Shown piece by piece: positions 27,256 through 63,100 of a stretch of 64,000 bases of DNA. Every line of letters starts with the position of its first letter. The stretch's first letter is position 1. A program made the translations under genes and the position numbers. The notes beneath the pieces were generated by a model. That model saw only the letters and a program-made list of their open reading frames with translations, did not search any database and was not told where the DNA came from. This stretch comes from a virus, in the IMG/VR virus record IMGVR_UViG_3300033146_004399, positions 115,367-179,366 of that record, one strand, 5' to 3'.

Positions 27256-28839
27256 TTGACTCGTTCAGATTTAATAAAGTACGCAAATAAAAATTTATTT
27301 GTAAATGGGAAGTTTAAAGGTATACGTAAAAATAGTATTCATTTTAATTTATTAAATGATTGTTTACCTAATAAAGAATATGATATATTAGAAAGATTTT
27401 ATTTATTTTATAATAATATAGAAACACCACCTCGTTGTATATGCGGCAAAAAATTAAAAATATTTCGTTGGTCAAATGGATATAATAAGTTTTGTAGTCC
27501 AAATTGTGGAGGCGTTGAATCAATTAAAACAATAAAAGTTAAATATAATGTGGATAATGTGTTTAAATTAGAATCTGTTAAAAGTAAATCTAAAAAAACT
27601 AAAAGTGAAAAATACGGTGATGAAAATTATAATAATAACAGTAAAGCTATAGAAACAAATATAATTAGGTACGGAGTTTCTAATACTTTTCAACTTACAA
27701 ATCGTATCACTGGAACAAATATAAAAAAATACGGTGTTAAACATAATTCATATAATAAAGATACTATTGAAAAAAGAAAATTAACTAGACTTAAAACTTT
27801 CTTTAATAATATCATAAAAAGAAATGATGATATTATTCCTTTATTTAACATAGATAGTTATCACGGGATTGATAGAAAAAATAAATATTCTTGGAAATGT
27901 ACAAAATGTGGCAATATATTTAGCGATCATTTAGATGATGGACATATACCAAGATGTTTAGTATGCAACCCAAAACTTGTTGGTATATCTAGTTATGAAC
28001 AAGAATTAAAAAATTTTTTAAATTTATATAATATAAAATTTGAAAGTAATTCTAGAGAATTAATTAAACCTTTAGAACTTGATATTTATATTCCTTCTCA
28101 CAATTTAGCTATTGAATTTGATGGCCTTTATTGGCATTCAGATGAATTTGTGGATAAATATTATCATTTAGATAAAACGCTAGAATGTGAAATGAAAAGT
28201 ATACAATTAATACATATATTTGAAGATGAATGGGTTAACAAAAGAAAAATAGTAGAAGCACGCCTAAAAAATCTATTAGGTTTAAATTCTAGAAGGATAG
28301 GAGCTAGACAAACCACTATAAAAGAAATAGATGCTAAAACTAAAAATACCTTCCTTAATACTTTTCATATACAAGGTGAAGATAAAAGTAGTATTAAATT
28401 AGGTGCTTATTACAATGATGAATTAATTGGTGTTATGACTTTCGGTAAATTAAGAAGATTTATGAACAAAATACATGTTGATGGAAGTTGGGAATTAATA
28501 AGATTTGTTACAATATCTGATACATGGACGCCAGGATTAGCTTCTAAGATGCTTATTTACTTTGAAAAAGAATGGAAACCAAAATTAATAGAATCATTTG
28601 CAGATAGAAGATGGAGTCAAGGTAATTTATATTATAAATTGGGGTTTAAATTTGATAAGCAAACAATACCTAATTATTATTATTCTAAAAATTTAAAACG
28701 TTATCATAGATACAAATTTAGGAAGAGTGAATTAAAGAATTTCGATAATTATTCAATAGATAAAACGGAGTTTCAAATAATGGATGAAGCAGGATGGCTA
28801 AGAATATATGATTGTGGTAACTACAAATTTGTTAAATAA
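27256..28839 (+). CDS. Hef-like homing endonuclease
   Basis: CPxC-type zinc sites, ELDIYIP..NLAIEFDGLYWHS, then ARQT..KEI, VMTFG, WELIRF, SFADRRWS, IYDCG. Confidence 0.8.
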   Translation: MTRSDLIKYANKNLFVNGKFKGIRKNSIHFNLLNDCLPNKEYDILERFYLFYNNIETPPRCICGKKLKIFRWSNGYNKFCSPNCGGVESIKTIKVKYNVDNVFKLESVKSKSKKTKSEKYGDENYNNNSKAIETNIIRYGVSNTFQLTNRITGTNIKKYGVKHNSYNKDTIEKRKLTRLKTFFNNIIKRNDDIIPLFNIDSYHGIDRKNKYSWKCTKCGNIFSDHLDDGHIPRCLVCNPKLVGISSYEQELKNFLNLYNIKFESNSRELIKPLELDIYIPSHNLAIEFDGLYWHSDEFVDKYYHLDKTLECEMKSIQLIHIFEDEWVNKRKIVEARLKNLLGLNSRRIGARQTTIKEIDAKTKNTFLNTFHIQGEDKSSIKLGAYYNDELIGVMTFGKLRRFMNKIHVDGSWELIRFVTISDTWTPGLASKMLIYFEKEWKPKLIESFADRRWSQGNLYYKLGFKFDKQTIPNYYYSKNLKRYHRYKFRKSELKNFDNYSIDKTEFQIMDEAGWLRIYDCGNYKFVK

Positions 28840-28873: not shown

Positions 28874-29056
28874 TTGATTAACACTCTAAAACAAATATAT
28901 CCAGATAAAAAGTTTGCATTAAATAGTTTTCTTACTATACAAGAAAATACAAAAACTACTACTATTAAGTGGAATGATAGTATATATGATTTGGAAAAAT
29001 ATCATAATATAAATGTTGAAAATAAACTTTTAGAACTAATAAAAGAAAATTTATAA
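28874..29056 (+). CDS. Small protein ending in a capsid-like segment
   Basis: KWNDSIYDLEKYHNINVENKLLELI resembles capsid MWSQESEQDLKAYHGLSADAELTALV. Confidence 0.45.
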   Translation: MINTLKQIYPDKKFALNSFLTIQENTKTTTIKWNDSIYDLEKYHNINVENKLLELIKENL

Positions 29057-33330: not shown

Positions 33331-33636
33331 TAATAGATACACTAAAATATTCTTCTTGGTAATAACTGCCACAATTGCCAGTACATAGTAGATGACAAAA
33401 TAAAACGTATGAAGAGTAAAAAAGTATATAGCATGAATTATATTTGCTCTAAGTGGAAACAGGCTAGAAATGAAAATATTTTAGATCGTAATTATTATAG
33501 AAATAAATACGTTGAAGATAGAGAGTTTATAAATTTAGTGGTTGAAGTTAACAGGTTATTAAAAAAAAAGAACAAAGGTAAAGTGAAAAAAATACCAAAA
33601 AAAAACATTAAAATAAGTTATTGTACGGAAAGATAA
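33323..33636 (+). pseudogene. Frameshifted AKxLL-CxxC family gene (listed ORF 33409..33636 is its 3' part)
   Basis: The frame of 33409 extends upstream as NILLGNNCHNCQY; it joins GTG 33323 (MFDNRYTK) if one A is added to the A4 run at 33344-33347. Confidence 0.5.
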
Positions 33637-33876: not shown

Positions 33877-35013
33877 ATGCATGGGACGATAGAGAAGAAG
33901 GAGATGATAACAATATTTAATATGAATATTTATAAAGATAAATTTATTAAACAATCAAATAAAATACATAATAATAAATATGATTATTCTTTAGTTAAAT
34001 ATGTAAACATAAGAACAAAAGTTAAAATAATATGCCCAGAGCATGGGGTATTTGAACAAAGAATTTATCATCATAGATCTGGAACTGGTTGTCCAAAATG
34101 TTCTGCAGACCATTCTGAAAACTTTAAAAGTATTGTAAAAACTATTCAAGAATTCAATAAAGAAGCTAATAAAATACATGATAATAAATATGATTATTCT
34201 TTGGTTGATTATAAAAATAGTCAAGATAAAATTAAAATAATATGTCCAGAGCATGGGGTATTTATACAACAAATGAACGCTCATTTAAAAGGTCAAGGTT
34301 GTTCTAAGTGCAGTCATAAGCATAAATATACAACCAAAGAATTTATAAAAAAAGCTAAAAAAATACATGGAAATAAATATGATTACAAACTTGTTTGTTA
34401 TAAAAATTCTGACACTAAAATTAAAATAATATGTCCAGAACATGGTACATTTATACAAAAAGCAAATAATCATATAAATGGGCAGGGTTGTCCTAAATGT
34501 GCTAATAATATTTTGTATTCTAAAAAAGAATTTATTGATAAAAGTAATAAAATACATGGTAATAAATATGATTATTCTTTAGTTGATTATAAAAATAATA
34601 AAACTAAGGTTAAAATAATATGTCCAGAGCATGGGGTATTTATACAAAAGCCATATGCTCATTTACAAAATCGTGGATGTCTAATATGTAATGAGTCTAA
34701 GGGTGAAAAAGCTACTGCTAAATATTTAAAAGATAAAAATATACAATATATAAGAGAATATAAATTTAATGATTGTAAAGATAAAAATTTATTACCATTT
34801 GATTTCTATATACCAAGTAGTAATATATTAATAGAATATGATGGAGAACAACATTACAAACCGATTGAACATTTTGGAGGCATTAAAGCGTTTAATAAAT
34901 TAAAGTATCGGGATAATATTAAAACTAAATATTGCGAAAACAATAATATAAAATTAATAAGAATAAAATATAATCAAAATGTTAAAGATATTTTGTTAAG
35001 TGAAGGAGTCTAA
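33877..35013 (+). CDS. Homing-type endonuclease with four KYDYS...ICPEHG repeats and a PD-(D/E)XK domain (likely start 33922)
   Basis: Repeats HGxKYDYSLVxY...KIICPEHG.F.Q...H..G.GCPxC; LPFDFYIP..ILIEYDGEQHY. Confidence 0.85.
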   Translation: MHGTIEKKEMITIFNMNIYKDKFIKQSNKIHNNKYDYSLVKYVNIRTKVKIICPEHGVFEQRIYHHRSGTGCPKCSADHSENFKSIVKTIQEFNKEANKIHDNKYDYSLVDYKNSQDKIKIICPEHGVFIQQMNAHLKGQGCSKCSHKHKYTTKEFIKKAKKIHGNKYDYKLVCYKNSDTKIKIICPEHGTFIQKANNHINGQGCPKCANNILYSKKEFIDKSNKIHGNKYDYSLVDYKNNKTKVKIICPEHGVFIQKPYAHLQNRGCLICNESKGEKATAKYLKDKNIQYIREYKFNDCKDKNLLPFDFYIPSSNILIEYDGEQHYKPIEHFGGIKAFNKLKYRDNIKTKYCENNNIKLIRIKYNQNVKDILLSEGV

Positions 35014-39350: not shown

Positions 39351-40786
39351 TGAATGAACCTGTATGTAACGTAAAAAAATGTCCATATTATCAAAGCTTT
39401 TTCAAACCAAATGAATTGATACAAAGTTATGTAGATATATTTATGGATAAGGGTAAAACAGCACATGCTTATCAAGTTGTTAGTAGTGTTAAGGGTATGT
39501 GTCTTGCATGTATTCACTTTCAGAAAAAAGATATACCTAATCTATTGACAGTAGCAGAAGCTTTATATCATTTAAAAGAAGATAATAATGAGGAGTAATA
39601 TATGACCCCAGAAGAAATTGAAGCGAGATTTCTTGCTCTTGAGAGAGATAACAAGAAGTTGAATAAGGATAATAAAGCTTTTATAAAATTAATAAATGAT
39701 CATGCTGGCTATATAAATAAAAATGCTACTACTATGAAAGGCATAGATAAATATATAAGAACGGAATTACAGCGTGTAGCCGCATCAATTAGAAAACTTG
39801 CAAATAGGAAAGTTAGATGAGTGAAGCTAAAGATAAAAGAATAATTGATGCATATATGAAAAAGCACCCTGATGCTTCCATACAGAAAATTGAATCTTAT
39901 GCTCAAAAAAAGGGTATCCATATTACAGTTATGCCTCAAACTGAACATCAAAGATTAAAAACAAAAATGATGAAAGATGCTGGTCTTGATGCTAATTTAG
40001 ATTTAGGAAAAGAGAGTGATCAAATTAAACTATTGGAAGCTGTTAATTCTCTTCCTAAAGAAAAACAATCTGAGTTTTTAGCGATGATGAAAAAATGAGT
40101 ATTCAAGGTTTAGCTATGGCACTCTTATCAAATCATGTTTGTGATAATTGCGATAATCAAACTTACCTTATATATAATGATTCTGATATTGGATGTTGGG
40201 AAAGTATGTCAAATAATCCTGTAGCTAGATGCTCTTTAAAATTGAAGCAAGGAACAAATAAACATAAAACTTGTCCAAGAGTAAATACTTGTAAAAAATG
40301 GAGCCCAATAATTGAAAGATAAAATTTATGTTCTCGGACCTAAATCTTCAGGTAAAACTACATTCATTCACAAATTAATGGGAAGAGATTATGTAGTTTT
40401 CAAAGATAAAGTAATTGAATCAGGGGAAAAGATAAAGCCTGATGATGCGATTCAAATTTATCTCATTTTCCCTAATCCAGATGAATTAAAAAATCGTGGT
40501 GGGGATATAACAGATGAAGAAATTGAAGAATGGATGACTTTTTACTATTCCAATGTAAAGGATATAACAATTGTTGAAGATTTTTAATAAAAAGAAAATT
40601 GCTGAAAATATAGAAAAAACTGGTAGTGAATATTTATGTGATAGTTGTCGCTATTATTCTATAGCATGTGATCCTTATTGTACTATATTAAGAATACCTC
40701 TTTATAATAAAAAATATAAATGTCAATATTATATTAATAGTTATAGAGAGAAATGTCCAGATAAGGTGGAAAATCCAAATGAGTGA
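39350..40786 (+). other. Run of small hypothetical genes (39350, 39602, 39817, 40095, 40312, 40571), several Cys-rich; 40312 has a P-loop
   Basis: Overlapping start/stop codons; CxxC motifs; GPKSSGKT in 40312..40587. Confidence 0.6.
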
Positions 40787-41669
40787 AAATTACAAAATAT
40801 CAATATACCTCAACAACTATCTTCCTAAATATAATCGTACTCAATTATCTAAAAATGAAATAATGCATCTTCCTCTTAAAGATGCAAAAAAAGCTACCCT
40901 TTCAGATAAATATACTTATATTTTAAGAGGTGAATCTACTATATATCCATACCTCTATGAACTTCTTGATCATCTTCAAGGTAAGAATTTTATTCTTATG
41001 ACTGAAGGTACAGACCCGGGAGTTTTAATACGTTATAAAAAGAAAATCCCGTATCTTTCAATTAATTGGGATGGTTTTCTAAATGATAGAATGAGATTTA
41101 ATTCCTCTCTAACTAGCAATATTATGAAACTTCTCGAACATTTTAAAAATAAAGATATGACTGTTCGTATCTCTTATACTTTTACTAAGACTAATCTTCC
41201 ATGGATTAATGTAGATGCAGATATATTACAGAAATTTTATGAACTTTATCAAAATGTTAAAAAGCCTTATTTTATCATTTATCAACAAACTGAAATTTAT
41301 AATCAGGAAGTATTTACTTGGGTTGGGATAGGTTTGAAAACAATTAGTATGCTAAGTCATAAAGGCCTCCTTTCACCAAAAAATTTAGCCTTCCTTAACG
41401 CGTGGATACATAAAGAGAGTTATGATTGTTATTCACCTCGAGGTGAAATGGTGTTAAGCTGGGACGGGAATTTTAAACTTTGCCAATCAATGAGATTTGG
41501 CGAAGTTATAGCCAATATATCTGATGGCTCAATAGAAGAAATTATTGAAGGTACAGAAGATGAAAGGGCTGATTGTGTGAAATGTGCTTTCAGAGAAAAT
41601 TGCTGGTTATCCTTTCATTATAAAGACAATATAAATTTTCTCAAAAATCCAACATTATTACCAAAGTAA
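40779..41669 (+). CDS. Degenerate radical-SAM-like protein with SPASM/twitch C-terminus
   Basis: C...MVLSWDGNFKLCQ...IANI...SIEEI...CVKCAFRENC; no CxxxCxxC motif. Confidence 0.5.
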   Translation: MSENYKISIYLNNYLPKYNRTQLSKNEIMHLPLKDAKKATLSDKYTYILRGESTIYPYLYELLDHLQGKNFILMTEGTDPGVLIRYKKKIPYLSINWDGFLNDRMRFNSSLTSNIMKLLEHFKNKDMTVRISYTFTKTNLPWINVDADILQKFYELYQNVKKPYFIIYQQTEIYNQEVFTWVGIGLKTISMLSHKGLLSPKNLAFLNAWIHKESYDCYSPRGEMVLSWDGNFKLCQSMRFGEVIANISDGSIEEIIEGTEDERADCVKCAFRENCWLSFHYKDNINFLKNPTLLPK

Positions 41670-41975: not shown

Positions 41976-42152
41976 ATGACTGATAGCGCTGCAGCAATCT
42001 CCCACCTCCTAAACAAAAGTTGTGCCAATTGTATACATTGTATACAAGAATCGTCTGTATTCTGTACTTTTAGAATGACATCACCCTCAGCTTTCACATG
42101 TGATAAATGGAAAAAATTTACAACTTTCACGTGGAATTTAACACCTAAATAG
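41976..42152 (+). CDS. AKxLL-CxxC family small protein (58 aa, below the ORF track cutoff)
   Basis: ISHLLNKSCANCIHC...C...TCDKW. Confidence 0.55.
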   Translation: MTDSAAAISHLLNKSCANCIHCIQESSVFCTFRMTSPSAFTCDKWKKFTTFTWNLTPK

Positions 42153-42185: not shown

Positions 42186-42692
42186 TTGAACACAAATGAA
42201 ATAGCAAAATCTCTCTTAACATCTGAACAAAATATAAATAATGTTATAACTTTTAAAATGAATGATTATAAAAGTATGGATAAAAAAACAATTTTAAATC
42301 CAGATACATTTATAAATATAGAACATTATGTCATGGCTTTTCAAGTATCTTCCGTTGGAGATGTTGATAAAATTGAATACGCAAATATTCCAGGTTTTAT
42401 TTTTTGTGATTGGCATCTTAATAATCAAAACGTAAAAAGAAAAACACAGCCTCACTATATTTGGGATAGCACAATCTTATTTAAAAATGAATTAGTAAAA
42501 GCCTATCTTAACGAAATTCAAGTTAAAACAGAAAAAGTAATAGTAAACCCCTTTGAAAATATATTTAAAGAAAATGTGGTTCAAGTAAACGGTATCATAA
42601 CTGTTGAAACTACAAAAGACGTAATAGATATATTTATAAATTCAAAACATCTATATTTTGTCAATAAGGATAGTTTGTATGGAACACAATGA
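42186..42692 (+). CDS. Hypothetical protein with EIAKSLL N-terminus
   Basis: TTG start downstream of AGCATATTT; AKxLL leader. Confidence 0.55.
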   Translation: MNTNEIAKSLLTSEQNINNVITFKMNDYKSMDKKTILNPDTFINIEHYVMAFQVSSVGDVDKIEYANIPGFIFCDWHLNNQNVKRKTQPHYIWDSTILFKNELVKAYLNEIQVKTEKVIVNPFENIFKENVVQVNGIITVETTKDVIDIFINSKHLYFVNKDSLYGTQ

Positions 42693-42954
42693 AGCTATAG
42701 CTGCCTTAACTGAGAGTATATATATTCAGCCTAAAGATATTGTTGGGGTGGGATTTATATCTGATGTTAATACTCGTGATGTTGAAACAATGGAAGTTAC
42801 TTATAGAGGGCAATCATTTACCAAACCAACCAGACACCTAGACCAAGAAATAACTGTAAAATTAGATTATATGACTAGAGAATTGACAGCTATGATTATG
42901 TCAGGTGATGTAAAAGTTGTGATCATAAAACACAGAGGAGATTTACATGTTTAA
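42658..42954 (+). CDS. Small protein with possible tail-tube-like segment
   Basis: VETMEVTYRGQSFTKP...ITVKLD recalls gp19 (VEIPFRGRKINIAG...WTVT). Confidence 0.4.
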   Translation: MSIRIVCMEHNEAIAALTESIYIQPKDIVGVGFISDVNTRDVETMEVTYRGQSFTKPTRHLDQEITVKLDYMTRELTAMIMSGDVKVVIIKHRGDLHV

Positions 42955-43201
42955 TAAAAAGAAAATAAAGAATGCTAAAGAAGAATTTCAGAGAGACTTC
43001 AAAGAATTTATTAGAGACCTCCTATTTGAAGATACTGGTTCTGCTCTTGGAAAAGCACATAGATTTATTAAACCTTTTTTAGACAGTGGATTAGTTGACA
43101 GTTTTGGGTTTGACGTAAATAAAAGCGGGACTACAAATACTCTTATAAAATATACAGATGGTGATTCTATAGCTTATACACTCTTCGATGAACAGTCCTA
43201 A
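42947..43201 (+). CDS. Small protein with possible sheath C-terminal-like segment
   Basis: LLFE...FIKPFL..G.V..F..D recalls the gp18 C-terminal domain. Confidence 0.35.
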   Translation: MFNKKKIKNAKEEFQRDFKEFIRDLLFEDTGSALGKAHRFIKPFLDSGLVDSFGFDVNKSGTTNTLIKYTDGDSIAYTLFDEQS

Positions 43202-43451
43202 AGCTGCTAAGAATATATTAGCAGGGAAAAGCTGCTATGATTGTAGATTTTTTAAGAATGATAAATGCCGTTACGGAAATTTATCGGAAGAATTATGGTG
43301 TGATCAGTGGGATAGTCCAAATGGTGCTCATAAGTTACGTGTCAATTGGACCAAGGAATCTGAAAAAGATATTAAAGCTTACCGTGGACTAAATGTTGAA
43401 GAAGAATTAATTAAAGCTGTCCAAACAGAAATAGATAAGGAGTTGAAATGA
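43188..43451 (+). CDS. AKxLL-CxxC protein fused to a major capsid fragment
   Basis: KLRVNWTKESEKDIKAYRGLNVEEEL...EIDKEL aligns with this window's capsid KLKAMWSQESEQDLKAYHGLSADAEL...EIDREI. Confidence 0.75.
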   Translation: MNSPKAAKNILAGKSCYDCRFFKNDKCRYGNLSEELWCDQWDSPNGAHKLRVNWTKESEKDIKAYRGLNVEEELIKAVQTEIDKELK

Positions 43452-43930
43452 TATATGATAAAAGAATGGATGCTTTATTAACACAATATCGTAATAAACT
43501 AACAGATTCACTTGAGTCAGTAACGACGCCAACTACAGAAAGGAAGGTGAGAGTTAATACTCCTTACGGATATGAATATAAAAGTAAGATGGTAAAATTT
43601 AAAAGATTGGATTGGAAAGGCACTCCAATTAAATGGGGTTTCAATGATGCAGAAGCAGAATTTAATACTAATAATTTTGAAGAACATTTTGTAGTAGCAG
43701 ACAGAAAACGTATGGATAAAATCATGGCTCACACTTTTAAAACTTTTGATAGCTATATAGATAAAGAGGTGGCTAAAATCCTTTTAGAAGGACACTCTGC
43801 ATTCTTCAATTATCGTGATGCAATAGATGTTACTGTTGAAGTTACAGAGAGTTGTGTCTCTCCTAAAGGAAATTGTATTACCCATATTATTCTTAAACCT
43901 TCAATAACTATAGCGGTTGAAGATGGTTGA
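43448..43930 (+). CDS. Hypothetical protein, C-terminus possibly sheath-like
   Basis: IDVTVEVTESCVSP...HIILKPSITI recalls the gp18 C-terminus. Confidence 0.4.
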   Translation: MIYDKRMDALLTQYRNKLTDSLESVTTPTTERKVRVNTPYGYEYKSKMVKFKRLDWKGTPIKWGFNDAEAEFNTNNFEEHFVVADRKRMDKIMAHTFKTFDSYIDKEVAKILLEGHSAFFNYRDAIDVTVEVTESCVSPKGNCITHIILKPSITIAVEDG

Positions 43931-44162
43931 GGAAGCCAAAAACATCCTTATAGGGAAAAGTTGTTATGATTGTGCATATCTACAAAAAAATAATATATGT
44001 AGTATTGATTCTAAAATAATACCTGAAGAAAAAAGTTGTCCCAGTTGGTCTCCACCAAGTGAGAATTTAATAGAAAAACTAAGAGATCAAATAGTGGCAG
44101 TAGTAGGTGTACCAAAGGAGTATTTATATGGAAAGAAAAATAATGGAAGCATGGCACGATGA
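43917..44162 (+). CDS. AKxLL-CxxC protein fused to a portal-like fragment
   Basis: LRDQIVAVVGVPKEYLYG versus portal FKDQILRTMGIPTGYLGG. Confidence 0.6.
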   Translation: MKMVEEAKNILIGKSCYDCAYLQKNNICSIDSKIIPEEKSCPSWSPPSENLIEKLRDQIVAVVGVPKEYLYGKKNNGSMAR

Positions 44163-44286
44163 AAATTTAATAATAACTAAACATGGTCTTACACAAATGA
44201 GAGCATTAATTATAATAGGAACAATTTTAGGATTTGCACTTGGTATGCAAACAATGTATTTAATTTTACTGTAAAAGGGGTTAATT

Positions 44287-46411: not shown

Positions 46412-46921
46412 ATGTTATTAAAATTTGTAAAGACAAGAGAAGTAGAAAGTCCAAATAGAGGACACGCAACAGATGCAGGAATTGATTTTAGAATGCCTGA
46501 GTTTAGTGATGAATTTAGAGAAAGTATTCATAATAATGACGCGAATACTGGCTCATATTTTGATGGGGATAAATTAATTATACCTGCCAACTGCAACACC
46601 GTTATTCCATCAGGTATAAAAGTTGAAATACCATTTGGTTATATGGGGATGTTTGCAGATAAAAGTGGAGTGGCATCTAAAACTGATTTAATAGTAGGCG
46701 CAAAAATTATAGATACCTTCTATTCAGGTGAGGTACATATCGATCTTCACAATATTGGTAAAAGTGAAGTTCGTCTTGAAGCCGGACAAAAACTGGCTCA
46801 GATGATTTTGATTCCCATCTTAAATTGTGATTTAACTGAAGTTGGTGAAGATCAGCTATATGATTGGATGAAGCCAGATTCTATAAGAGGCGAGGGCGGA
46901 TTTGGCTCTACTGGTAAATGA
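46412..46921 (+). CDS. dut: Trimeric dUTPase
   Basis: AGIDF, KSGVA, IIDTFYSGE, KLAQMI, RGEGGFGSTG. Confidence 0.92.
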   Translation: MLLKFVKTREVESPNRGHATDAGIDFRMPEFSDEFRESIHNNDANTGSYFDGDKLIIPANCNTVIPSGIKVEIPFGYMGMFADKSGVASKTDLIVGAKIIDTFYSGEVHIDLHNIGKSEVRLEAGQKLAQMILIPILNCDLTEVGEDQLYDWMKPDSIRGEGGFGSTGK

Positions 46922-48494
46922 CGGAATTGTATAATATTGTTGCCAGCAATATAATAGCTGGCAAACAATGTATAAATTGTGTATGGTCTAAAAAAGCCAC
47001 TCCTGGATTTATACATTGTTTAAATGATAAAGACTATAAAGATTCTATAGGTACTAATGATATAAGTATAAAAGATTACGCTAAAACTATTTTATGGAAG
47101 GAGACGTATTCTTGTGAATGTTGGCACGGTGGTGAGAAATCTCCTCCTAGAACATAATTGTAAATGTTCTGAACGGTTTGCATCCTTATGTAATTGTGGC
47201 GCAAGAGCTATTATAGATTAAAACAATAGTTACTAACGGAATATCAAAAGATGAGAGAAATTTGTGAAGAATGGGATTCATAGTATAATTAAAAAAGTAA
47301 AGCCGGAGAATACATGTGGAAAGTGGCAAAGTAACAGATAGGAAGAAGTGTAAAAACTGTATCTATATAAGACGTAAAAGAAACAAATTTTATTGTTCTA
47401 ATAATATTCAAGTTACTAATATAATAGGTGTAGATATTGTTACAGCGTCTAATTTATTAGCTTCAGGCGGGAAGGTACAAATTGATGAGGACGGAACATG
47501 TGAATACTGGTCAGATTGCTAAAAATGTTCTCCTAGAGAGAATTTGTGATAATTGTACTCATTACGTCGATAACGATTTTGACGTTGGTGGAATATGTAG
47601 AAAAAATAGTCTCGACCTACCTGGGAAATCTATACCTAAGGAAAATACCTGTCTTGAGTGGAAAGAAGGTTTCCGCCTTGAAATTAAAATGACATCCATC
47701 CCCATAACAGTTAAAGCAAGGAAATTGAAGATTAAATGGACTAAAGATGCTGAGTAAAAATGAAAAAGCTAAAAATATTCTTATAGGGAAAGTGTGTAAG
47801 AATTGTATATATAAACATCCGTATAAAGATTATTATTGTTTCTTCTATGATATTAGAATATTTAAAAATATATGTAAGGACTTTAAATATAATGACAGAT
47901 GACATCCTTGCTAAGAAACTTTTAACTCGCCAGGAATTAAAATCAACCATGTTATACAGTGTGGATAGAAATAGTGTAACAGTTTATGATTGTCCGGCTT
48001 GTAGAGAAGACCATATAGACGCTTAAGTCTTATGTGATATGAAGGGACATTTTTATATAAGGTGCCCTAATACAGGTTTAAAAATTGTTGGTGTCTATGC
48101 ATAATTTATTTTATGGAAAATCATACTAAAGCTAAACATCTTCTTTTAAATCATAATTGTTATAATTGTGATTTCTATTTTAAAAAGTTTAATAATTGTA
48201 TGATGTTAATGATTAAGGAACATGTAACTAAAGAGAAGGCAATTTTGCCGAGAGAGTTAATTTGTGACAATTGGAATAATGAGCAACAACAATAAGATCG
48301 TAGCGGAAGCTAAAGCGTTATTAGCTGATAAAAATTGTAAAAATTGTAAATTTAATTTAATCCATGCTAGTTGGAATGCAATGAACCTGGAAGAGTGCGG
48401 CTGGTGGTATCATAATGACAGAGGGAGCAAAAAGTCACTTAATCCTCCGCCAGTAAAAGAATACGGAGCTTGTAAGTTATGGAAACATGTTTAA
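46918..48494 (+). other. Cluster of AKxLL-CxxC small genes (46918, 47316, 47482, 47747-47902, 47892-48104 interrupted, 48113, 48264)
   Basis: Shared AKNxL.GK.CxxC...C...CxxW pattern. Confidence 0.7.
47482..47757 (+). CDS. AKxLL-CxxC protein fused to a major capsid fragment
   Basis: IKMTSIPITVKARKLKIKWTKDAE aligns with capsid ITIGNIPVAVKTRKLKAMWSQESE. Confidence 0.75.
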   Translation: MMRTEHVNTGQIAKNVLLERICDNCTHYVDNDFDVGGICRKNSLDLPGKSIPKENTCLEWKEGFRLEIKMTSIPITVKARKLKIKWTKDAE

Positions 48495-49818: not shown

Positions 49819-51552
49819 TCATTTCACTTCTCTCATCATAGATTCAATAAGACCAGTACCACGTTCTTTGCTTCTTTTTACTGATTGATGATAATTACCT
49901 CTCCAATGTCGTACAATTCTTTCTTTATAATCTAGATTATCAGGATCTTTAGTTTCTTTTTCTTTTTTTGGATTATTAGTTTTTGTATCAATCTCAGTAA
50001 AGAATGATTTAATAATGAGTGGTATATCTTTTATCTTCTCTTTATACCCAATTTCTAAGTGATGAGTTATTTTCCCATTCATACCAATCTTTGATATAAC
50101 TCGTCTTAGATGATCTTTATACTTCTGTTCTTGGAATTTAGCATTTGTTTTATGCCAATATTTTACTTTCTTATAGTGTTGCTGCCCATGGTATTCTATA
50201 AATACGTTAAATTTCGGCATGAGCACTATAAAATCCATCCTTTTATTTCGACCAGTATCTGGTAATTTTTTATCAGCAGAGAGACTATTAATATCAAATG
50301 GTTCTTCTTTTTTTACGTATTCAGTATATTTATCTTTAAACTTGTTTAGAAGTGCATTTGTTATAGCGTGTTCACCTAATGATTCTTTTTTAGTTACTAT
50401 ATCTTTTGCTGATAGATCATTTTTACCATCTGCGTCCTTTTGAAATTTAAATGTATATCCGCTAACAGAATAACGCTCAGTACTTAATACAGATAATATT
50501 TTTTTATAATCTATATTTAATTTTTCTCCTGCTTCTTGGACATTATCATATTCATTTTTGTATTTACCGTTTATAGATTCATATGCACATACGGGTTCAA
50601 CTAAAGTAAGTTTTGCACAATTTGGACAACCATGACCTTCTACAGCATGACCTTGAATCGTTTGAGTAATTTCACCAAATCTCTCATGACCATGTTCGTG
50701 ACATATATATCTTAATTTAGAATTTTCTTTATTAACAGTACTTGAAGTGGCTCGTGCGTATTTTGGTATAAAAGTATATTCATAGTTCTTATCACCATGT
50801 TTTTCTTGACATAATTCTTCTACTTTTTTTCTTCCCATGGCTTTTTTATCAGCAAGGTGATTTTTAGATTGTTGATAAGACATAGAATTACCTGATACCA
50901 TAACTGGATATTCTTCGCCTGTATCATCATTAATAAATACAACATATTTTTTTTTATTAGTTTTCTCGCCTTTTTTCTGTAATTCATCTCTTTTTTTATT
51001 ATATCTACCTGTAAGAGGTTCCCATGGTGTTGTACCATTACTTCTCCAATAACCAGCATACATTTCATTATTATGTAACTTAACACGGTTCCAATCTTTA
51101 AAAAACTTTTTATCTATTTTAAGTTTAAATTCTTCCCACGGTATTGTTCCGTATTTTTTTTCTTTTTGTCTTGTACGTGTTACGCCTATTAAATTACGTT
51201 CGCTTCTTCTTTTCGCGGCATCTCTTTTGCTAAGAGATCCTTTACTTAAATGAGTTGAGAACGTTTCTGGCGTTTGTTTTTCACCATCAACATAATATAA
51301 AACTTTTCTGGTTCTTTCAACACCTGGTGTTTTCGGGGCTATCCATTTCTTAAATTCTTCGTCTTTTACACTCCATAATCCGTCATTAGTATTTGGATTA
51401 ATTTTATATTCTATCCTTTCCCATTCCCAACCTTTTTCCAAACATCTCTTTTTAAATTCAGGTTCAACTTGAGTTGCCCAACACTGTTTTATACCCGGTA
51501 CTGATCCAGTTTTTTCATTTAATTGTTGATTCATATTTTCAAGTATTTTCAT
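49819..51552 (-). CDS. Large endonuclease-like protein (zinc motif, NUMOD-like segment, C-terminal PD-(D/E)XK)
   Basis: CHEHG...GHGCPNC; RMDF...FIEYHGQQHY. Confidence 0.65.
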   Translation of the reverse strand: MKILENMNQQLNEKTGSVPGIKQCWATQVEPEFKKRCLEKGWEWERIEYKINPNTNDGLWSVKDEEFKKWIAPKTPGVERTRKVLYYVDGEKQTPETFSTHLSKGSLSKRDAAKRRSERNLIGVTRTRQKEKKYGTIPWEEFKLKIDKKFFKDWNRVKLHNNEMYAGYWRSNGTTPWEPLTGRYNKKRDELQKKGEKTNKKKYVVFINDDTGEEYPVMVSGNSMSYQQSKNHLADKKAMGRKKVEELCQEKHGDKNYEYTFIPKYARATSSTVNKENSKLRYICHEHGHERFGEITQTIQGHAVEGHGCPNCAKLTLVEPVCAYESINGKYKNEYDNVQEAGEKLNIDYKKILSVLSTERYSVSGYTFKFQKDADGKNDLSAKDIVTKKESLGEHAITNALLNKFKDKYTEYVKKEEPFDINSLSADKKLPDTGRNKRMDFIVLMPKFNVFIEYHGQQHYKKVKYWHKTNAKFQEQKYKDHLRRVISKIGMNGKITHHLEIGYKEKIKDIPLIIKSFFTEIDTKTNNPKKEKETKDPDNLDYKERIVRHWRGNYHQSVKRSKERGTGLIESMMREVK

Positions 51553-54341: not shown

Positions 54342-55337
54342 TTGACTATGGAATATACAAAAGAATTGTTTGAAGATTTATATATAAATAAAGGTATGAG
54401 TATGAGACAAATTGCCACCCATTTAGATTTGGGTAAAGGTATGGTTGATTCATATATTAGAAAATTTGAAATACCTAAGCGTTCGAGAGCTGAATCTATA
54501 ACCAAACGATTTGAGAATACACCAAGAAAAAAAACAAAACAAAAGCCTCGTAAGAAAACGGCGCGACCCTGGCAAACGTATGAGCTAACTGAAGACAATT
54601 GGGAAATACAAGAAATAAACTTACGTGCAGATAGAAAAGGTGTAAAATGTTTATTTATAGATGGAGAGAGAGTAAGAGGAGATGATAGGGTATCATTTAT
54701 ATGTAAGCAAACTGGTGAAGAGGCTGAAAGACGTGTTTTCCACTTCATACAAAATCCGACCTTCTTATCAAAGAGTGCAGTAACTAGTAATACCTCCAGA
54801 GGTAGAAAACAAACTGAGGAAGCAAAAAGAATTATTGGTGAAAAGAATTCCGGAGAGAGGATTGATACATATTTTGATTTTACGTGTCCAGTATGTGGGG
54901 AAACATTTAAGTATAGAGATATTCAACGAAATAGAATAAAAAAATATTGTAGTAAAGAATGTCAAAAAACTGCATTTGTTAGTGCACCAGAATTTAAAGG
55001 TAAAATGAATAAACTTGAAGAATACTTTTGTACCATCCTTGACAGTATGGGATATAAATATAAAACACAGCATTTAGTAAAGTATTACATGGTTGATTTT
55101 TTCTTTGAAGACAAAAATCTTATTATTCAAGTAGATGGAGATTATTGGCACACAAACCCAGTGAAATATCCAGAAGGGCCAACAAGTGAAAGACAAATAC
55201 AAAATTTTAAAATGGATAAGAAATTTAAAAACTATATAGATGAATATACAAATTACAATGTAATGCGAATATGGGAAAGTGAAATAAATGGTGATGTAGA
55301 AAAAGTTAAAAGGAAAATAAAAAAGGCACTCAATTAA
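54342..55337 (+). CDS. Free-standing Vsr/DUF559-like homing endonuclease with HTH and zinc finger, convergent on the capsid gene
   Basis: N-terminal HTH, CPVCG...YCSKEC, YMVDFF...IIQVDGDYWH, VMRIWESE. Confidence 0.8.
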   Translation: MTMEYTKELFEDLYINKGMSMRQIATHLDLGKGMVDSYIRKFEIPKRSRAESITKRFENTPRKKTKQKPRKKTARPWQTYELTEDNWEIQEINLRADRKGVKCLFIDGERVRGDDRVSFICKQTGEEAERRVFHFIQNPTFLSKSAVTSNTSRGRKQTEEAKRIIGEKNSGERIDTYFDFTCPVCGETFKYRDIQRNRIKKYCSKECQKTAFVSAPEFKGKMNKLEEYFCTILDSMGYKYKTQHLVKYYMVDFFFEDKNLIIQVDGDYWHTNPVKYPEGPTSERQIQNFKMDKKFKNYIDEYTNYNVMRIWESEINGDVEKVKRKIKKALN

Positions 55338-55384: not shown

Positions 55385-56936
55385 TCAGGGTAAATCCTTA
55401 ATATCAATCTGAGTATATAAAAGTTGTCCATGAGGAACTTGAGTCAATCCATATCGTGCTAAGAAACCACGTCTTGGGTTAAAATCATTTTCACCCACGA
55501 ACAGGTGTGAGGTTAGTTACATATGGACTATAGACCAAACCAGCGCCAAAAGGAGACTGAGGAGATTTGTGACCCATAAGAATTTTGTCATCTGGAAACA
55601 TAGGATCTTTATAGATATCATATCGACCAGCATAAGTACCGGCTTTAACAATATTCATACCCATGGAAGCAGTAACAGGATTAGGAATGAAGCCTTTAAG
55701 AACTTCAATATAAGAAGCAACTTTAGTACCAACAATCATCCAGTTAGCAGGACCAATTTTTGATTTTCTGAATACTTCATTACTAGCTCTAGTAACTTTT
55801 TGCATAAGAGCTAAGTGAGCATCAAGGTAATTACCTGATGTGTTGTTCTGAGCAAAAGAATTCCAGTCATAAGTAAAGCGTGAAGATGCAGGAACAAGAG
55901 TCATAACTTTTTGAATTATCTCTCTGTCTATTTCAGCAATCATTTCGTTAGAAACAAGAGCTGTAAGTTCAGCATCAGCACTTAAACCATGATAAGCCTT
56001 TAAATCTTGTTCAGATTCTTGTGACCACATAGCTTTGAGCTTACGAGTTTTAACAGCAACAGGAATGTTACCGATTGTGATTCTCATCTCAGGAATTTGT
56101 TCTGTAAATTCAAGATCAGTTTTGTACCAAGCTTTAATAGCAGTTTCAGCACCAGCTTGAGCACCATTGTAAACAACTTTAAGATTTCCAGCAGCATAAG
56201 TGATAGTAAAATCACCGTTTAAAGAACCAACTCTATCAGCGCTTCTTACTTGAAAGTTAGTAGCATCAAGTGAAGAGAAGGAAAATGTTTCTGAGAAATC
56301 ATCAGCACCAGTTAATTCAATAGTACCAAGAATCATAGCTGAATTTTCAACATTAACAGCACCGGCAGTTGCCTGCATTGGCCAAATGTTTTGAATAGCT
56401 GTTTTAGGAGCAGCAGAAATAACACCATTAAAAGTTCTAGGTGGAAGTACATCAGGGTTGATATCAATGTCTGCGTCAGCACTACCAACAGCAGAACCAG
56501 AGAAAGGTCCAATTTCGTCGGTGGAGTAGTAAGGATTATATCCTTCCTGAGCACCAGCTTGTTCTTCAAACATAGAGTATTCAGGATAATCAGTACCTGT
56601 ATAACCACTAGCTGGGTTACCTGGTCTTTCTGTTCCCATCTGATACTTTAAGTAAAAGATGATACCTGCAGGAGCCGCAATTGGCTGTACAGATACAATG
56701 TTATTTGCAATTAAGTTAGGGAATACACGTCTAACTATAGGAAGCATGATTTTTTGAAGACCTTGTACATCACCTTGAGTGGTTGCACCAGGAGCTTCTG
56801 TTAAATATTTTGCTTCATTTTCTAGAAGAATAGCAGTATTTTCTACTGTATATTCATCTGAGATACCTTCGAGAAATGGTGACCATTTCTTAAGAAGTCT
56901 ATCTTTTTCTTCTTTCATTAATCTTTGAGCGTCCAT
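55385..56936 (-). CDS. gp23: Major capsid protein (T4 gp23-like) with an apparent frameshift near 55497-55502
   Basis: LLKKW, TAILLEN, VRRVFPNLIA..IVSVQP, TRKLKA.W..E..QDL.A.HG; the conserved tail VGENDFNPRRGFLARYG...DLP* lies in another frame (55498-55385). Confidence 0.9.
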
Positions 56937-57086: not shown

Positions 57087-57890
57087 TTATCTAGATTTTT
57101 TTAACCCAGCTAAAATAAGTTGTTCATTAAGCATATTTTCAAAAGCTGAGTCTTTAGCTTCGAATTTGTCCTCTACATAATCATCTTCAACAGAACGTCT
57201 GATTTTAATATCTTCAACATCGTCTTCGATATCATCGTCATCGTCATCATCATAATCTGCAGTATAATCATCAGTATAATCGTCATCGTAATCTACATCT
57301 TCATTCATAGCAGGAGCAGCTGATTTAGTTGTGTTTTCTTCTTTCAAAGCCTGCTTGATTGTAGCAAATTTTTCTACGATTTCTTCTTCACTACCTTCGC
57401 CTAAAAGTTTAGTAACAACTTTTCGTACGTCAGGGGATAAAGATTCAACAAGTTTTGATTTCTTAACTTCGCCCTTAAGCTGGTCAAGATCTTCAATACT
57501 TTCTTGATACATTTCGGCAAGTTTATTAAACTCGTCTCTATGTCGTTTAGCCGTTGATTCATTAATGAGAGGATATATAATCGCTTTCATTTCTTCAAGA
57601 GCTTTTACTTCAGGTGATTCTAGGTGTTCAACCATAACCTGTGCTTTAATTTCAGAGTACATTTCTTTAAGAGCTTTTGTAAATCTCTTTGTGTAAACTC
57701 TTTTCATGTTCTCTTTGATATTAGAAACCAAATCTTCGTACTCATCTTTGAGGTTGGCTTCCATTATTTCGTATTTTTCAGTGAGTTCAGTTTCAAGTTT
57801 TTTCTTCTCAGTTAATTTCCAAGAATCAAGTTTGCCTTTAAGCGCTGATTGCTGAGACTCAGTAAGTTTGATATCTGCTAAAATACTCAT
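57087..57890 (-). CDS. gp22: Prohead scaffolding protein (gp22-like)
   Basis: Acidic coiled coil between protease and capsid; ends in LAGL. Confidence 0.75.
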   Translation of the reverse strand: MSILADIKLTESQQSALKGKLDSWKLTEKKKLETELTEKYEIMEANLKDEYEDLVSNIKENMKRVYTKRFTKALKEMYSEIKAQVMVEHLESPEVKALEEMKAIIYPLINESTAKRHRDEFNKLAEMYQESIEDLDQLKGEVKKSKLVESLSPDVRKVVTKLLGEGSEEEIVEKFATIKQALKEENTTKSAAPAMNEDVDYDDDYTDDYTADYDDDDDDDIEDDVEDIKIRRSVEDDYVEDKFEAKDSAFENMLNEQLILAGLKKSR

Positions 57891-58795
57891 TAGTTGTCCT
57901 CCTTTTTAAGGTTTAAGGTATTTTTATCGTATCCTAAATGATCGATTTTTGTTTTTAGTTTTTCGGAAATTGTTTTGCCGTAGATACGACTAATAAATTC
58001 CATGTTTTCTTCATTAACAGAGATTCTTTCATGTTCAGCACCCTTTTTAAGAAGAATGTGATAATCATGAGACATATGGAAATTTAAATAACCATAAGAA
58101 TCTTTTTCGCCTTCAACAATATAAAATTTATTGTTTTCAGCTTCATCGCCTCCAACATAATATCTGCGTTCCTGTTCAGGAGTTTCTACATCTTCATCGA
58201 GAATTTCTTCAACGAGGAAGTTTAGGTTTGTTACATAATCCTCATCTTCAGTTACTACTTCAGCAACTTCAGTCTGTTTACTTTCATAAACAGCGTTAGG
58301 ATATGCACCCGGTGTAGATGGGTCAGACACAATATCAAAAGTAACAAGTTTGAAGTCGTCTTGCACTTCATTAAGTCCATTCACTTCTTTGGTAGAACCA
58401 AAGCCACGAGATGATATACCAAGCTTCACACCACTTTTAATAAGACTTTCGAGAATTTTACCAGCTGGTGTTTGTAACACTTCAGCTTCACCTATAACAG
58501 AACCAGAAGGATCCATAGTAAGTGCAGTAATTTTATGAGACACCTTATCAAGGTGGATTTTAGCATCATCTGGATGATCTAATTCCCCAAGCATTCTGCC
58601 CTCAACAACCATATCGGTCGTGGAAGAAAGCGCACTTTCTAGTACAGCTCGAGGATAAGTTCGTCTGTTACCATTAGGGGTATCAGATTTCTGAAAGATG
58701 CCTTTTAGACGGAACTTTTTGGGCATACCATCTTCGTTGAGTTCTTGTATTTCGTAAGAGAATTCGTTAAACTCTTGTAAGATGTTATTAGCCAT
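57890..58795 (-). CDS. gp21: Prohead maturation protease (gp21-like)
   Basis: NGNRRTYP, LGELDHP, VSHKI, LGISSRGFGS, DIVSDPS. Confidence 0.93.
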   Translation of the reverse strand: MANNILQEFNEFSYEIQELNEDGMPKKFRLKGIFQKSDTPNGNRRTYPRAVLESALSSTTDMVVEGRMLGELDHPDDAKIHLDKVSHKITALTMDPSGSVIGEAEVLQTPAGKILESLIKSGVKLGISSRGFGSTKEVNGLNEVQDDFKLVTFDIVSDPSTPGAYPNAVYESKQTEVAEVVTEDEDYVTNLNFLVEEILDEDVETPEQERRYYVGGDEAENNKFYIVEGEKDSYGYLNFHMSHDYHILLKKGAEHERISVNEENMEFISRIYGKTISEKLKTKIDHLGYDKNTLNLKKEDN

Positions 58796-60192: not shown

Positions 60193-63100
60193 TTATTTAC
60201 TCATCTTCACCTTTTCGTTTAATGTGCGCTGTATTTTATTTGAGCTTCTATAGGCTTTTAATAAACCCCTAAATTCTCCCTCAATGATCATTCGGGTTGC
60301 ACTATTCTTTTGCTCATATTTTATCTTGTCACTATTATTATCTTTATGTACTTTTTCGTAAAGATTAACATATTTTAATAATTTTTCAACATCTTTATTG
60401 CTTTCAAAGAGCCATTTACCACCATCAAACTCTATAAAATTGGCTCCAGCAACTTCTAATCCTGCTTCTCCGCCACCAGCAGGAGGTGCTTCACCGCCAG
60501 CAGGTGCTTCTTGCCCTCCCATTCCACCTTCAGGAGGTCCACCAGCTGCTCCGCCAGAAGCTCCACCACCCATTATATTGCCACCAAGATTTCCACCGCC
60601 AGCCATATCCATTCCTCCACCAGCAGATGCACCAAGATTTTGCATTTGAAGTTGCATCTGCATTTGCATTTGAATTTGCAATCTAATCTTCTGTATTTCT
60701 TGTTCAGACATACCAAGTATTTCTTTGTAAATCCATTCATCAGGTAAAAAGTTCTCTAACGTTCTAACTTGTTGTATAAGGGCAAATTGTTGATTTCTTA
60801 TCTCTATTTCCATTAACTGGTCTACATTAGATGGAGGTGTTAATTTAATTTTAAAGTCTCTTATTTCTTTAGAATCTATTTTTGAAAATACCAATTCAAT
60901 AAGAGCAATTTTTTCTAAACCTTTAATAATTAACTTCTGTATTCTTTCTATAGTTCTTGAAAATTGAACTTCTTGATTGGAGAGATACGATTTAGGGTCA
61001 TATGTTCCTGCACCAGCATCAGATGAATTACCACCAAGGTAACCAGTAGGAATACCCATAGTTCTTAATATTTGATCTTTGAAATATTTAACATCATCTA
61101 TCTCACCTAAATTTTGCCCACCAGGAAGTGTCTCAATTCTTGTCCCTTGACTATTCTGCCTTACGGGAATATAAAAGTCTTCGTCAACCGAATTATGAAC
61201 AAATACACCAGCTTCAGTTGCAAAGTTGTGATACTTCTCGATAGTTATATCACCAGTATCTTCTTTATAATCAAGCCATTCTATTTTAGTGACTTTATGA
61301 TTTTGATAATTTGACTGTTTAGATAAAAGTCTCAATTCTTTCCACGATTTCAAGCTCAATTTGTTTAAAATATTATAGTATTGCTTTCTACTAATTTCTT
61401 CTTGTAGTATAAAGTCTTGCATTTTATTATACTCAGAAGCTTTATCTAAGCAAATTGTTTCTATATTATCTAATCTTTGTGTTATAGAACTTAATACATT
61501 ATAATTATTTCTGATTAATACATTTTTTATGTATGTATATAAAAATCCGTTTTCTTTACAAAAGTTTGTAATTTCGTGTGAATATATTATAGCATTTTTT
61601 GTAAAATGTTGATCAATAACAAGTAATGTTTCTTCTTCCTTTTTTTTCATTTTTTCTTGAAATTTTTGAGTAGCAAGTTTTGTGTTTGGTGTTCTAAGAC
61701 TTTTAGTTTTTACTCCGCAAACTTCTTTTAACCACTGTTCGGAAGATTCATATCCTATTTCTCTCATAGCTTTTACAATAAAATGTGCATTAGGACCATT
61801 TACTTGTTTATTTGGTTTACAAAAGGTTTTCCATTCTTGCATCAATTTATTGTTGTTACACGCATTTTCCATAACATTAACGATAGATATATAGCCTTGA
61901 CTATTTGGCTGTGTTTCTTGTGCTATATTTTTCAAAAGAGACCAAAATTTATTTGTGACTTTATTTCTTATGGTCATCCCATTGATATATTTTTGTCTTA
62001 ATTTTGGATCAGAGAATTGCTTTTTCATATTTTTCGATCTTATATCGTTATAAATGTAAGACATATTTTGATGTAATTTTCTATGATTACTAAATGACAT
62101 TACTTTTAAATTATTAGGAGTATTGTTTAATTTATTAAAATCTTTGTGATGAATCGTTTTATTATTGTTAAAAGATGTAAATTTTCTATTTTTCCAATCA
62201 TCATACATATTTCCTACTAATCTGTGAGTATATTCATATTTACTAGTTTTTGGATTATATATTTTTTCATAACCATCAATTTTATCCCTATCTTCTTTAG
62301 AAGACAGTTTAGTATAGAATGGCATTAAAGCTTGTCCGTTTTTAAGATCTTGCGCTTCGCAATAAGAACCATCCCGCAACATAAATCTATGGTCTGGTGT
62401 TGTTCTCAATTCCTCGCCATTATCTAAAGTTACTTTAATTAATTTTGCATTCTTTCTAGTTACATCCGCCCATATAATTTTACCAGGTACTATTTGATTA
62501 TCATTTTCAACATCTATAGAATATGTCCAATTTTCATTACCAGATTTATATTCTTCAATCAATTCTGTTAGTGAAAGACTTCGACCATCTAAAAGTGGAA
62601 TTTTAGTATCTAAAGTTATACATAAAGGATTTGCCTTTTCATCTACTTCACCTGTTGTAGGATTAATAAATTTCTTTTTGCGGAATTGTCTTTTCAACGT
62701 TTCCATAAATTTATTAGCTTCTTTAGTTGGCATGGTACCGACATCTACATAAAATACTCTTCTCTCTGGAGCTCTTGATATTCTATATATAAGCATAGCG
62801 TCTTCCATAAGAGAAAGTTTTTTAAATGTCTTTCTGCCTGATTCTAATATAGAACGACCATATGGTTCAAATTCTTCATCCTCAATCCTGAAGTGAACAA
62901 TCTGCCATGGTTGAAAAACTCTATTTTCCTTCTCTTCATCTTCATATTCATATCTGAATTCAATAAGATTACCTTCCCTCTCAACTCTCTTCATATTCTC
63001 AGGTTTCTTAATTCTCTCCAAGGAGATTATATGTTTTGGATTATCTACGTTATCTACTATAACTTCAAGGAATTCATCACCTAATTTACAGGTATTTCTT

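Follow-up and report, generated by a model that had tools for sequence, protein, structure and literature searches.

Small cysteine-rich proteins of a divergent T4-like phage carry tails derived from the major capsid protein

Background

Many bacterial defences fire on the phage major capsid protein (MCP) because phages cannot change its conserved core, and how phages answer such MCP-sensing defences is, to our knowledge, largely open. Here we analyze a 64,000-nucleotide (nt) stretch of viral DNA (IMG/VR record IMGVR_UViG_3300033146_004399, positions 115,367 to 179,366; hereafter the window), which forms the last 64 kb of a 179,366-bp record estimated to be 63% complete and belongs to a very divergent T4-like phage. 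Two of its small genes, 43188 and 47482 (genes are named by their first position in the window), encode a domain with four invariant cysteines (Cys4) followed by a tail homologous to a piece of the phage's own MCP, and hundreds of small phage genes appear to have copied such conserved capsid stretches onto a separate carrier. Such proteins, whether they serve as decoys, shields or folding aids or as weapons against rival phages, would provide a testable handle on the partners of conserved capsid segments in the cell. The Cys4 domain is in itself a new, very abundant and unannotated small domain of jumbo phages.

In phage T4, a 29-residue stretch named Gol, located in the first quarter of the capsid protein gp23 and its most conserved part, binds domains II-III of EF-Tu and licenses the Lit protease, so that a short, highly conserved MCP stretch acts alone as a ligand (PMC3014915). 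Binding of EF-Tu by the T4 MCP, and sensing of MCPs by many defences, have also been described (PMC13581612, PMC13728456). A sister sub-family of the proteins described here carries that same region; unlike Gol, which lies within the full-length MCP, it does so in a separate gene on a carrier, and the window tails correspond to another MCP segment (T4 gp23 ~249-311). We know of no ligand for this second segment.

A small phage protein acting against a structural-protein-sensing defence, the logic of a decoy, is exemplified by DSAD1, reported to compete with the tail tube protein, the trigger, at DSR2 (PMC11087589). In the present case, by contrast, the tail is itself an MCP homolog. DSAD1 is not, as far as we know, a copy of its trigger.

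A tiny cysteine-rich domain present at dozens of copies in a jumbo phage also has a precedent in Bacillus phage G, where a zinc ribbon has expanded to ~35 copies that were proposed to be transcription factors, with no virion-derived tails reported there (PMC7824862). Our Cys4 family profile found no match in the phage G genome (NC_023719) at E<=0.1, although small domains can diverge past detection. Finally, T4 gp24 is likewise a second MCP-descended gene kept for function, but it is a complete HK97-fold protein, whereas here 28-60 MCP residues are fused to an unrelated domain. No description of such carrier-plus-tail proteins turned up in the literature we searched, in agreement with a first-pass annotation of the window, which knew of no described system of this form and had flagged five adjacent genes (42658, 42947, 43188, 43448 and 43917) as pieces of different virion proteins.

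Two mini-proteins end in pieces of the major capsid protein

The two chimeric genes and their capsid counterpart are located as follows:

43188..43451, plus strand: Cys4 mini-protein of 87 residues, with the carrier domain at residues ~5-44 (AKNIL.GKSCYDC...C...C..W) and the MCP-derived tail at residues 45-87 (nt 43320-43448)
47482..47757, plus strand: Cys4 mini-protein of 91 residues, the last ~28 of which (nt ~47668-47754) match MCP residues ~283-311, partly overlapping the segment of 43188
55491-56936, minus strand: MCP gene, gp23-type
55917..56090, minus strand: source-like MCP segment, residues 283-340 (T4 gp23 249-306)

Residues 48-86 of 43188 align with residues 299-340 of the phage's own MCP at 45% identity (pairwise E 5e-10). 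Among all 1728 frames in the genome, only the MCP matched the tail significantly (E 8.5e-7), and a profile of the MCP segment built from 11 related capsids recovered 43188 among 12,262 frames at E 6.5e-8; the earlier observation that this gene ends in a diverged copy of a capsid segment is thereby borne out. The 43188 protein also gave virion-protein matches in profile libraries, namely to PHROG major head (E 4.8e-4) and to Pfam Gp23 (PF07068; E 8.2e-5, 22.6 bits with a cut-off of 24.4). The Pfam match covers profile positions 145-186 of 376 only, and by this measure 43188 holds a Gp23-family fragment and is not a capsid protein. A tblastn search with the tail alone found about 270 gp23 genes among GenBank phages at ~40% identity. 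The window MCP reaches at most ~31% identity to any GenBank phage capsid. The tail of 47482, 4 kb away from 43188, was detected by the MCP-segment profile (E 4.9e-5) and by genome search (E 4.6e-4).

Structure prediction with AlphaFold2 (AF2) gave a poor model of the 43188 domain from 12 sequences and a predicted local distance difference test (pLDDT) score of ~80 from a 49-sequence alignment. In the latter model the tail is predicted with high confidence as a short helix followed by a long one, with the helix at residues 70-86 scoring 90+. We presume, going by the gp24 fold, that the corresponding MCP segment forms the same short and long helices.

We then asked how widespread such tails are, taking as our sample the 45 tail-bearing members (tail >= 25 residues) among the best 150 public representatives of the Cys4 family. 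MCP-derived tails were present in 13 of these 45, all from other phages: seven match a profile of MCP residues 278-345 (T4 gp23 ~249-311), down to E 7.7e-14, and six match a profile of MCP residues 52-108, the N-terminal VQPM segment, at E 1e-11 to 1e-15. Pfam Gp23 is matched by 9/45, and Pfam found no other virion family, so that the idea of many different structural payloads is not supported. The best Gp23 match (P0107, 36.7 bits) lies above the cut-off, but again over a limited stretch (profile positions 140-194 only). One gene of the flagged locus, 43188, and the nearby 47482 are carrier-MCP chimeras of a kind that recurs in many unrelated uncultured phages; a five-gene cassette is not supported.

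By alignment to T4 gp23 (PDB 6uzc), the N-terminal piece corresponds to T4 ~80-160 and contains VRRAIPNLIAFDICGVQPM, and the window piece to T4 ~249-311; in the capsid sequence G000, residues 49-129 align to T4 gp23 80-160. Tails of the sister sub-family carry the N-terminal MCP motif RR.FP.LIA..VQP...G.FYLKY, and in these VQP-type tails the MCP piece is followed by a shared basic helix. We take the N-terminal piece to be the Gol region. A Gol-type origin is seen only in sister proteins of other phages, the window tails corresponding to T4 ~249-311 rather than 80-160. Presumably the two pieces make up the E-loop/P-domain hairpin, the first as its ascending and the second as its descending leg, as in the HK97 and gp24 folds, with the later piece running into a short helix and the spine helix, and with a variable insertion domain between both pieces.

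The source segments are themselves near-invariant: among IMG/VR relatives with capsids 45-68% identical to the window MCP (contigs of 388 kb and 189 kb among them), the segment at MCP residues 283-340 is 74-94% identical. The tails, in contrast, are 45-62% identical to one another and 22-46% identical to MCPs, and they share the motifs KWTKESE and VEEELIKAV, which are absent from capsids. That the tails are closer to each other than to any capsid and have motifs of their own indicates that the capture was old and has been conserved, with descent under the tails' own constraint rather than as recent debris. The full pattern of this sub-family (homology to MCP ~283-345 with KWTKESE and EEELIKAV) is found in 43188; 47482 has the strand part only, and 43917 lacks it. 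Our sequence comparisons establish the Cys4 family and the MCP origin, age and conservation of the tails with much higher confidence than we attach to any mechanism of mimicry. Conservation of this kind argues for function rather than decay, and would fit a mimic, an antagonist or an assembly modulator.

The carrier is a large and unannotated Cys4 family

Members of the carrier family have an N-terminal helix with the motif A-K-N-L-L followed by CxxC ... C ... CxxW, and the AKNLL motif and four invariant cysteines are present across 49 aligned members. Both 43188 and 43917 show all of these features (jackhmmer E 7e-29 and 1e-17), and are paralogous to each other over the ~45-residue N-terminal domain (E 3e-11); by these alignments they are members of the family, not decayed duplicates. 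Iterative jackhmmer search found at least 14 copies in this 179-kb record, with window copies at 33346 (degraded), 40095, 41976, 43188, 43917, 46918, 47316, 47482, 47747, 48113 and 48264, and four further family domains just upstream of the window. Those outside the flagged genes include:

33346..33636, plus strand: degraded Cys4 copy, with a TAA interrupting the domain, directly upstream of a homing-endonuclease-like gene
40095..40322, plus strand: tail-less Cys4 member
41976..42152, plus strand: Cys4 member of 58 residues with a short tail
46918..48494, plus strand: tandem array of six Cys4 genes (46918, 47316, 47482, 47747, 48113, 48264)

Copy numbers are also high in relatives, with 16 in G001 (a 388-kb genome, 98% complete) and about 42 by hmmsearch, or 38 by a second genome search, in G003 (a 114-kb record). 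A profile search of 1.84 billion representative proteins returned 851 clusters at E<=1e-3, nearly all of 50-150 residues with the domain N-terminal, and most family members are without any tail. No model in Pfam, PHROG or NCBIfam covers the Cys4 domain, a typical member gave zero tblastn matches among GenBank phages, and a Foldseek search of the Cys4 model against the PDB found nothing. A wide structural search returned only generic long-helix matches (Z ~3), and matches in the ESM Atlas were only to unnamed viral clusters. Taken together, these sequence surveys delineate a large, unannotated and fast-expanding family of ~50-residue mini-proteins, spread over a clade of jumbo phages that are T4-like but very divergent, in which the C-terminal tail is optional and exchangeable. 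The cysteine pattern and the compact AF2 model suggest that the domain probably binds zinc.

Some members stand out for their genomic setting or their tails. A VQP-tail member (P0025) lies on L090, a Joint Genome Institute (JGI) contig of 732 kb, which extends the family to the largest known phage genome sizes. Three public representatives (P0051, P0137 and P0133) have tails with repeated LSQxEIDxLL motifs, which to us recall the CheY-binding peptide at the N-terminus of FliM; a PDB sequence search gave this likeness no support. Were it genuine, the carrier would present further short binding peptides as well.

Gene content at the locus differs between strains

Two contigs of one NCBI metagenome assembly (L082 and L083) are strain variants of this phage. 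L082 has an extra 80-residue paralog (P0002) with a helix-only tail between 42947 and 43188, and the window 43188 consists of the first ~40 nt of this extra paralog joined to the body of the next gene (43188-43228 compared with L082:463-705 and 698-961). On this comparison, 43188 arose by a crossover between two tandem paralogs in the first ~40 nt that they have in common. In L083 the array at 46.9-48.5 kb is longer by four paralogs, and a different carrier domain precedes the same GVPKEYLYG tail end that we find in 43917. Between strains, family members including the six-gene array have ratios of non-synonymous to synonymous polymorphism (pN/pS) of 0.06-0.47. Such rapid gain and loss between strains is typical of accessory or conflict genes.

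The tail of 43917 resembles the portal marginally

43917..44162, plus strand: Cys4 mini-protein of 81 residues, paralog of 43188, with a tail (nt ~44052-44159) that ends in GVPKEYLYG
60193-63531, minus strand: portal gene, gp20-type, split by an intein
61024..61086, minus strand: portal motif, residues ~816-836 (GIPTGYLGG), faintly like the 43917 tail and ~35 residues past the intein C-terminal junction

The first-pass annotation also read the end of 43917 as a copy of a portal segment. Pairwise comparison with portal residues 803-834 does give E 8e-4, but the match falls to E 0.39 in a genome-wide phmmer search, a portal-segment profile places 43917 at E 0.23, level with two unrelated frames, and Pfam Portal_T4 (PF07230) gave zero matches at E<=1. 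The likeness is thus marginal, and a portal origin is unproven at the sequence level. The motif itself, G(V/I)PK(E/D)YL(Y/F)G, is kept in 43917, in the strain variant L083 and in a Cys4 gene (L028:13271-13591) of a distant relative whose capsid is 48% identical, and when these three tails are searched as a profile, portal proteins come out on top, each time at this motif, but only at E 0.1-3. The conserved motif suggests that the 43917 tail is probably functional. A 55-residue ORF for a predicted membrane protein (44107-44274) begins inside the last 18 codons of 43917, which places the tail end under a dual coding constraint, and this may account for part of its conservation. A scan of metagenome contigs with the 43917 protein found zero relatives.

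The portal intein spans ~470 residues (portal residues ~312-780, ending ...VHN/S) and has an endonuclease-sized insert. We rejected a split intein or intein remnant as the source of the portal-like tail: the match starts ~23-35 residues past the intein junction, and the part that carries the tail is the Cys4 domain of the family.

The remaining three flagged genes are orphans

42658..42954, plus strand: orphan gene of 98 residues, conserved in strain variant L082
42947..43201, plus strand: orphan gene of 84 residues, with an identical protein in L082
43448..43930, plus strand: orphan gene of 160 residues under purifying selection

These three genes had been likened to tail tube and sheath segments, a resemblance that we did not recover. 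None of them matched Pfam, PHROG or NCBIfam, including the tail sheath (PF04984) and tail tube (PF06841) families, and none was similar to any frame of the phage's own genome or of relative G003, in which sheath and tube are both encoded; the present 63%-complete record has neither of these two genes. The 43448 gene has a pN/pS of 0.08 relative to a near-identical strain contig, and 42947 differs from L082 by three synonymous and zero non-synonymous changes. By these comparisons all three are real orphan genes and not virion fragments. Instead of five neighbouring genes with a fragment of a different structural protein in each, the locus has one proven piece (the MCP piece in 43188), one marginal portal likeness and three orphans.

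Proposed competitive mimicry of the capsid protein, and its alternatives

The five flagged genes lie within a run of tightly overlapping plus-strand open reading frames (ORFs) that runs on into genes for phosphoribosyl pyrophosphate (PRPP) synthetase and dUTPase. This position in one block with nucleotide-metabolism genes suggests expression before the late phase in this phage. The T4 late-promoter motif TATAAATA was not found upstream of the window capsid gene, which makes that motif uninformative on expression timing here, and a scan for sigma-70 promoters came out below chance.

We consider it plausible, at somewhat less than an even chance, that the tails act by competitive mimicry of MCP segments towards some partner. 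The Cys4 domain would serve as the carrier, and the tail would imitate, at the molecular level, one of the two MCP stretches that are most conserved and least mutable; the mini-protein would then compete with the MCP, or replace it, towards a partner that recognizes that stretch. The likeliest partner would be a host factor or an MCP-sensing defence, which would make the mini-protein a decoy or a shield, and the next likeliest would be the complementary strand of unfolded MCP. Because MCPs trigger many defences and the T4 MCP binds EF-Tu, a decoy or shield role is attractive, and the early-type gene context fits it; a decoy is nonetheless one of several roles that we infer as candidates from the sequences.

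Several observations weigh against competitive mimicry. In T4, a Gol-like peptide alone activates Lit, which would make a naive decoy suicidal unless it bound without activating, and EF-Tu is too abundant to titrate. MCP tails are also sporadic, as five large relatives (G001-G005) have many family members and zero MCP-type tails. In a few members we see fusions to HNH or GIY-YIG nuclease motifs, and the Cys4 domain may accordingly bind nucleic acid. In relatives, arrays adjoin the MCP gene on the same strand, a position that an assembly role, or mere capture of nearby MCP DNA, would explain as well as counter-defence does. Purifying selection, which the first-pass annotation had suggested looking for, is evident in 43448. 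The MCP tails show only 0 and 1 changes between strains (the single change lying in the 29-codon tail of the L083 ortholog of 47482), and these DNA tracts are younger than their flanks, so that the count is uninformative.

A bolder form of the mimicry proposal, which we regard as speculative and rather unlikely, is that these genes constitute a widespread and undescribed class of counter-defence. A zinc-stabilized carrier would display the two unmutable MCP stretches (the Gol/EF-Tu region and T4 gp23 ~249-311), would be made before or alongside the capsid protein, and would occupy or mask what capsid-sensing immunity reads (Lit/EF-Tu, Avs7/8/10, CapRel, CmdTAC and Thoeris-type sensors), its gene arrays growing and shrinking in the manner of an arms race.

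The first alternative, doubtful in our estimation but the most probable of the four, is that the proteins are capsid folding or assembly factors, in which an MCP-like strand and helix would pair with nascent MCP as a holdase, a timing brake, a size determinant or a minor or internal head protein. Such a role is favoured by the source of the tails, which is the MCP alone and, within it, the two stretches that are conserved most strongly, and also by the arrays of relatives L022, L025 and L028 (with VQP-type tails in L022 and L025), which share the strand of the MCP gene and are found 2-4 kb downstream of it. The T4 MCP, moreover, needs dedicated folding help (PMC3014915). However, core assembly factors are normally single-copy and universal, whereas these genes vary in number between near-identical strains, the 98%-complete G001 is without MCP-type tails, and in this phage they form part of a block for replication and nucleotide metabolism whose strand is opposite to that of the head genes.

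A less probable explanation, to which we give only a small chance, is that the tails are recombination by-products without a function of their own, the MCP pieces having been copied into a shuffling family of small genes amid homing endonucleases and introns. The setting would be favourable: the genome has the portal intein as well as several endonuclease-like genes, two tandem paralogs have recombined to give 43188 itself, copy number differs between strains, an insert in relative L035 interrupts the MCP gene exactly within the VQP segment, and a borderline MCP-like frame (28874-29056) lies just downstream of an endonuclease gene. Homing endonucleases can also amplify loci (PMC13096335). By-products would hardly account, however, for the way in which one carrier is joined again and again to the same two MCP segments across many representatives <50% identical to one another, for tails whose motifs and mutual similarity set them apart from every capsid, or for reading frames that have remained open while diverging to ~40% from a source that is itself near-invariant; debris would not persist this long in phage genomes.

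Very unlikely, in our judgement, is a role as weapons, in which the MCP-like tails would be dominant-negative poisons of capsid assembly in co-infecting relatives. The target segments are near-invariant across the clade, so one mimic would affect many competitors, and the family is accessory, multi-copy and strain-variable; yet the phage's own MCP has the same segment, and self-poisoning would need to be avoided.

40779-41669: SPASM-like ORF (Pfam E 8e-4, below cut-off)

Least probable of all, with a very slim chance, is that the Cys4 proteins are nucleic-acid-binding regulators, or precursors of ribosomally synthesized and post-translationally modified peptides with an N-terminal leader and cysteines modified by a radical S-adenosylmethionine/SPASM enzyme, and that the MCP resemblance is incidental: the HNH or GIY-YIG motifs of some members, the SPASM-like ORF and the ~35 zinc ribbons of phage G proposed as transcription factors (PMC7824862) point that way, but a zinc knuckle fits both the pattern of cysteines and the AF2 model, which is compact and confident, the phage G genome gave the family profile no match, and the conserved MCP tails would be left unexplained.

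Other features of the window and its relatives

57890-58795: prohead protease
27256-28839, 33877-35013, 49819-51552 and 54342-55337: endonuclease-like genes, with DUF559/Vsr-type nuclease ends and an I-HmuI-like NUMOD domain

One of the four endonuclease-like genes directly adjoins the MCP gene. A blastn search of the flagged locus against GenBank phages gave zero matches. Among the nuclease fusions of the Cys4 family, P0158 ends in an HNH-like motif (HHIDG...N...H), and 1/45 tail-bearing members matches Pfam GIY-YIG (E 6e-5).

The later-segment profile found no significant match outside the family in the 12,262 frames, the best being 28874-29056 at E 0.033. This is a 60-residue ORF without a Cys4 domain, just downstream of a 527-residue endonuclease-like gene, and its MCP-segment match (..IKWND..DLEKYHNINVENKL..) is borderline. 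With the N-terminal-segment profile, the sole match outside the family was the first exon of the L035 MCP itself, whose capsid gene is split there: in L035:9992-11903 the MCP gene is interrupted, exactly within the conserved VRRVFPNL / ..NNLVSVQP segment, by an insert of ~250 nt that has no ORF. The insert is probably a small intron; the same MCP stretch is picked by mobile elements and by mini-protein tails. We also considered a fixed insertion site of a mobile element as the origin of the tails, and rejected it, as the MCP start points differ (~283, ~297 and ~60).

The window MCP shows one further peculiarity. In the region 55385-55505 (minus strand) its frame ends in ...LTPVRG*, and the conserved C-terminal ~37 residues (..NDFNPRRGFLARYGL..DLP) run on in the +1 frame, unlike in relatives, which carry them in frame; the break reflects either an assembly error or a programmed frameshift.

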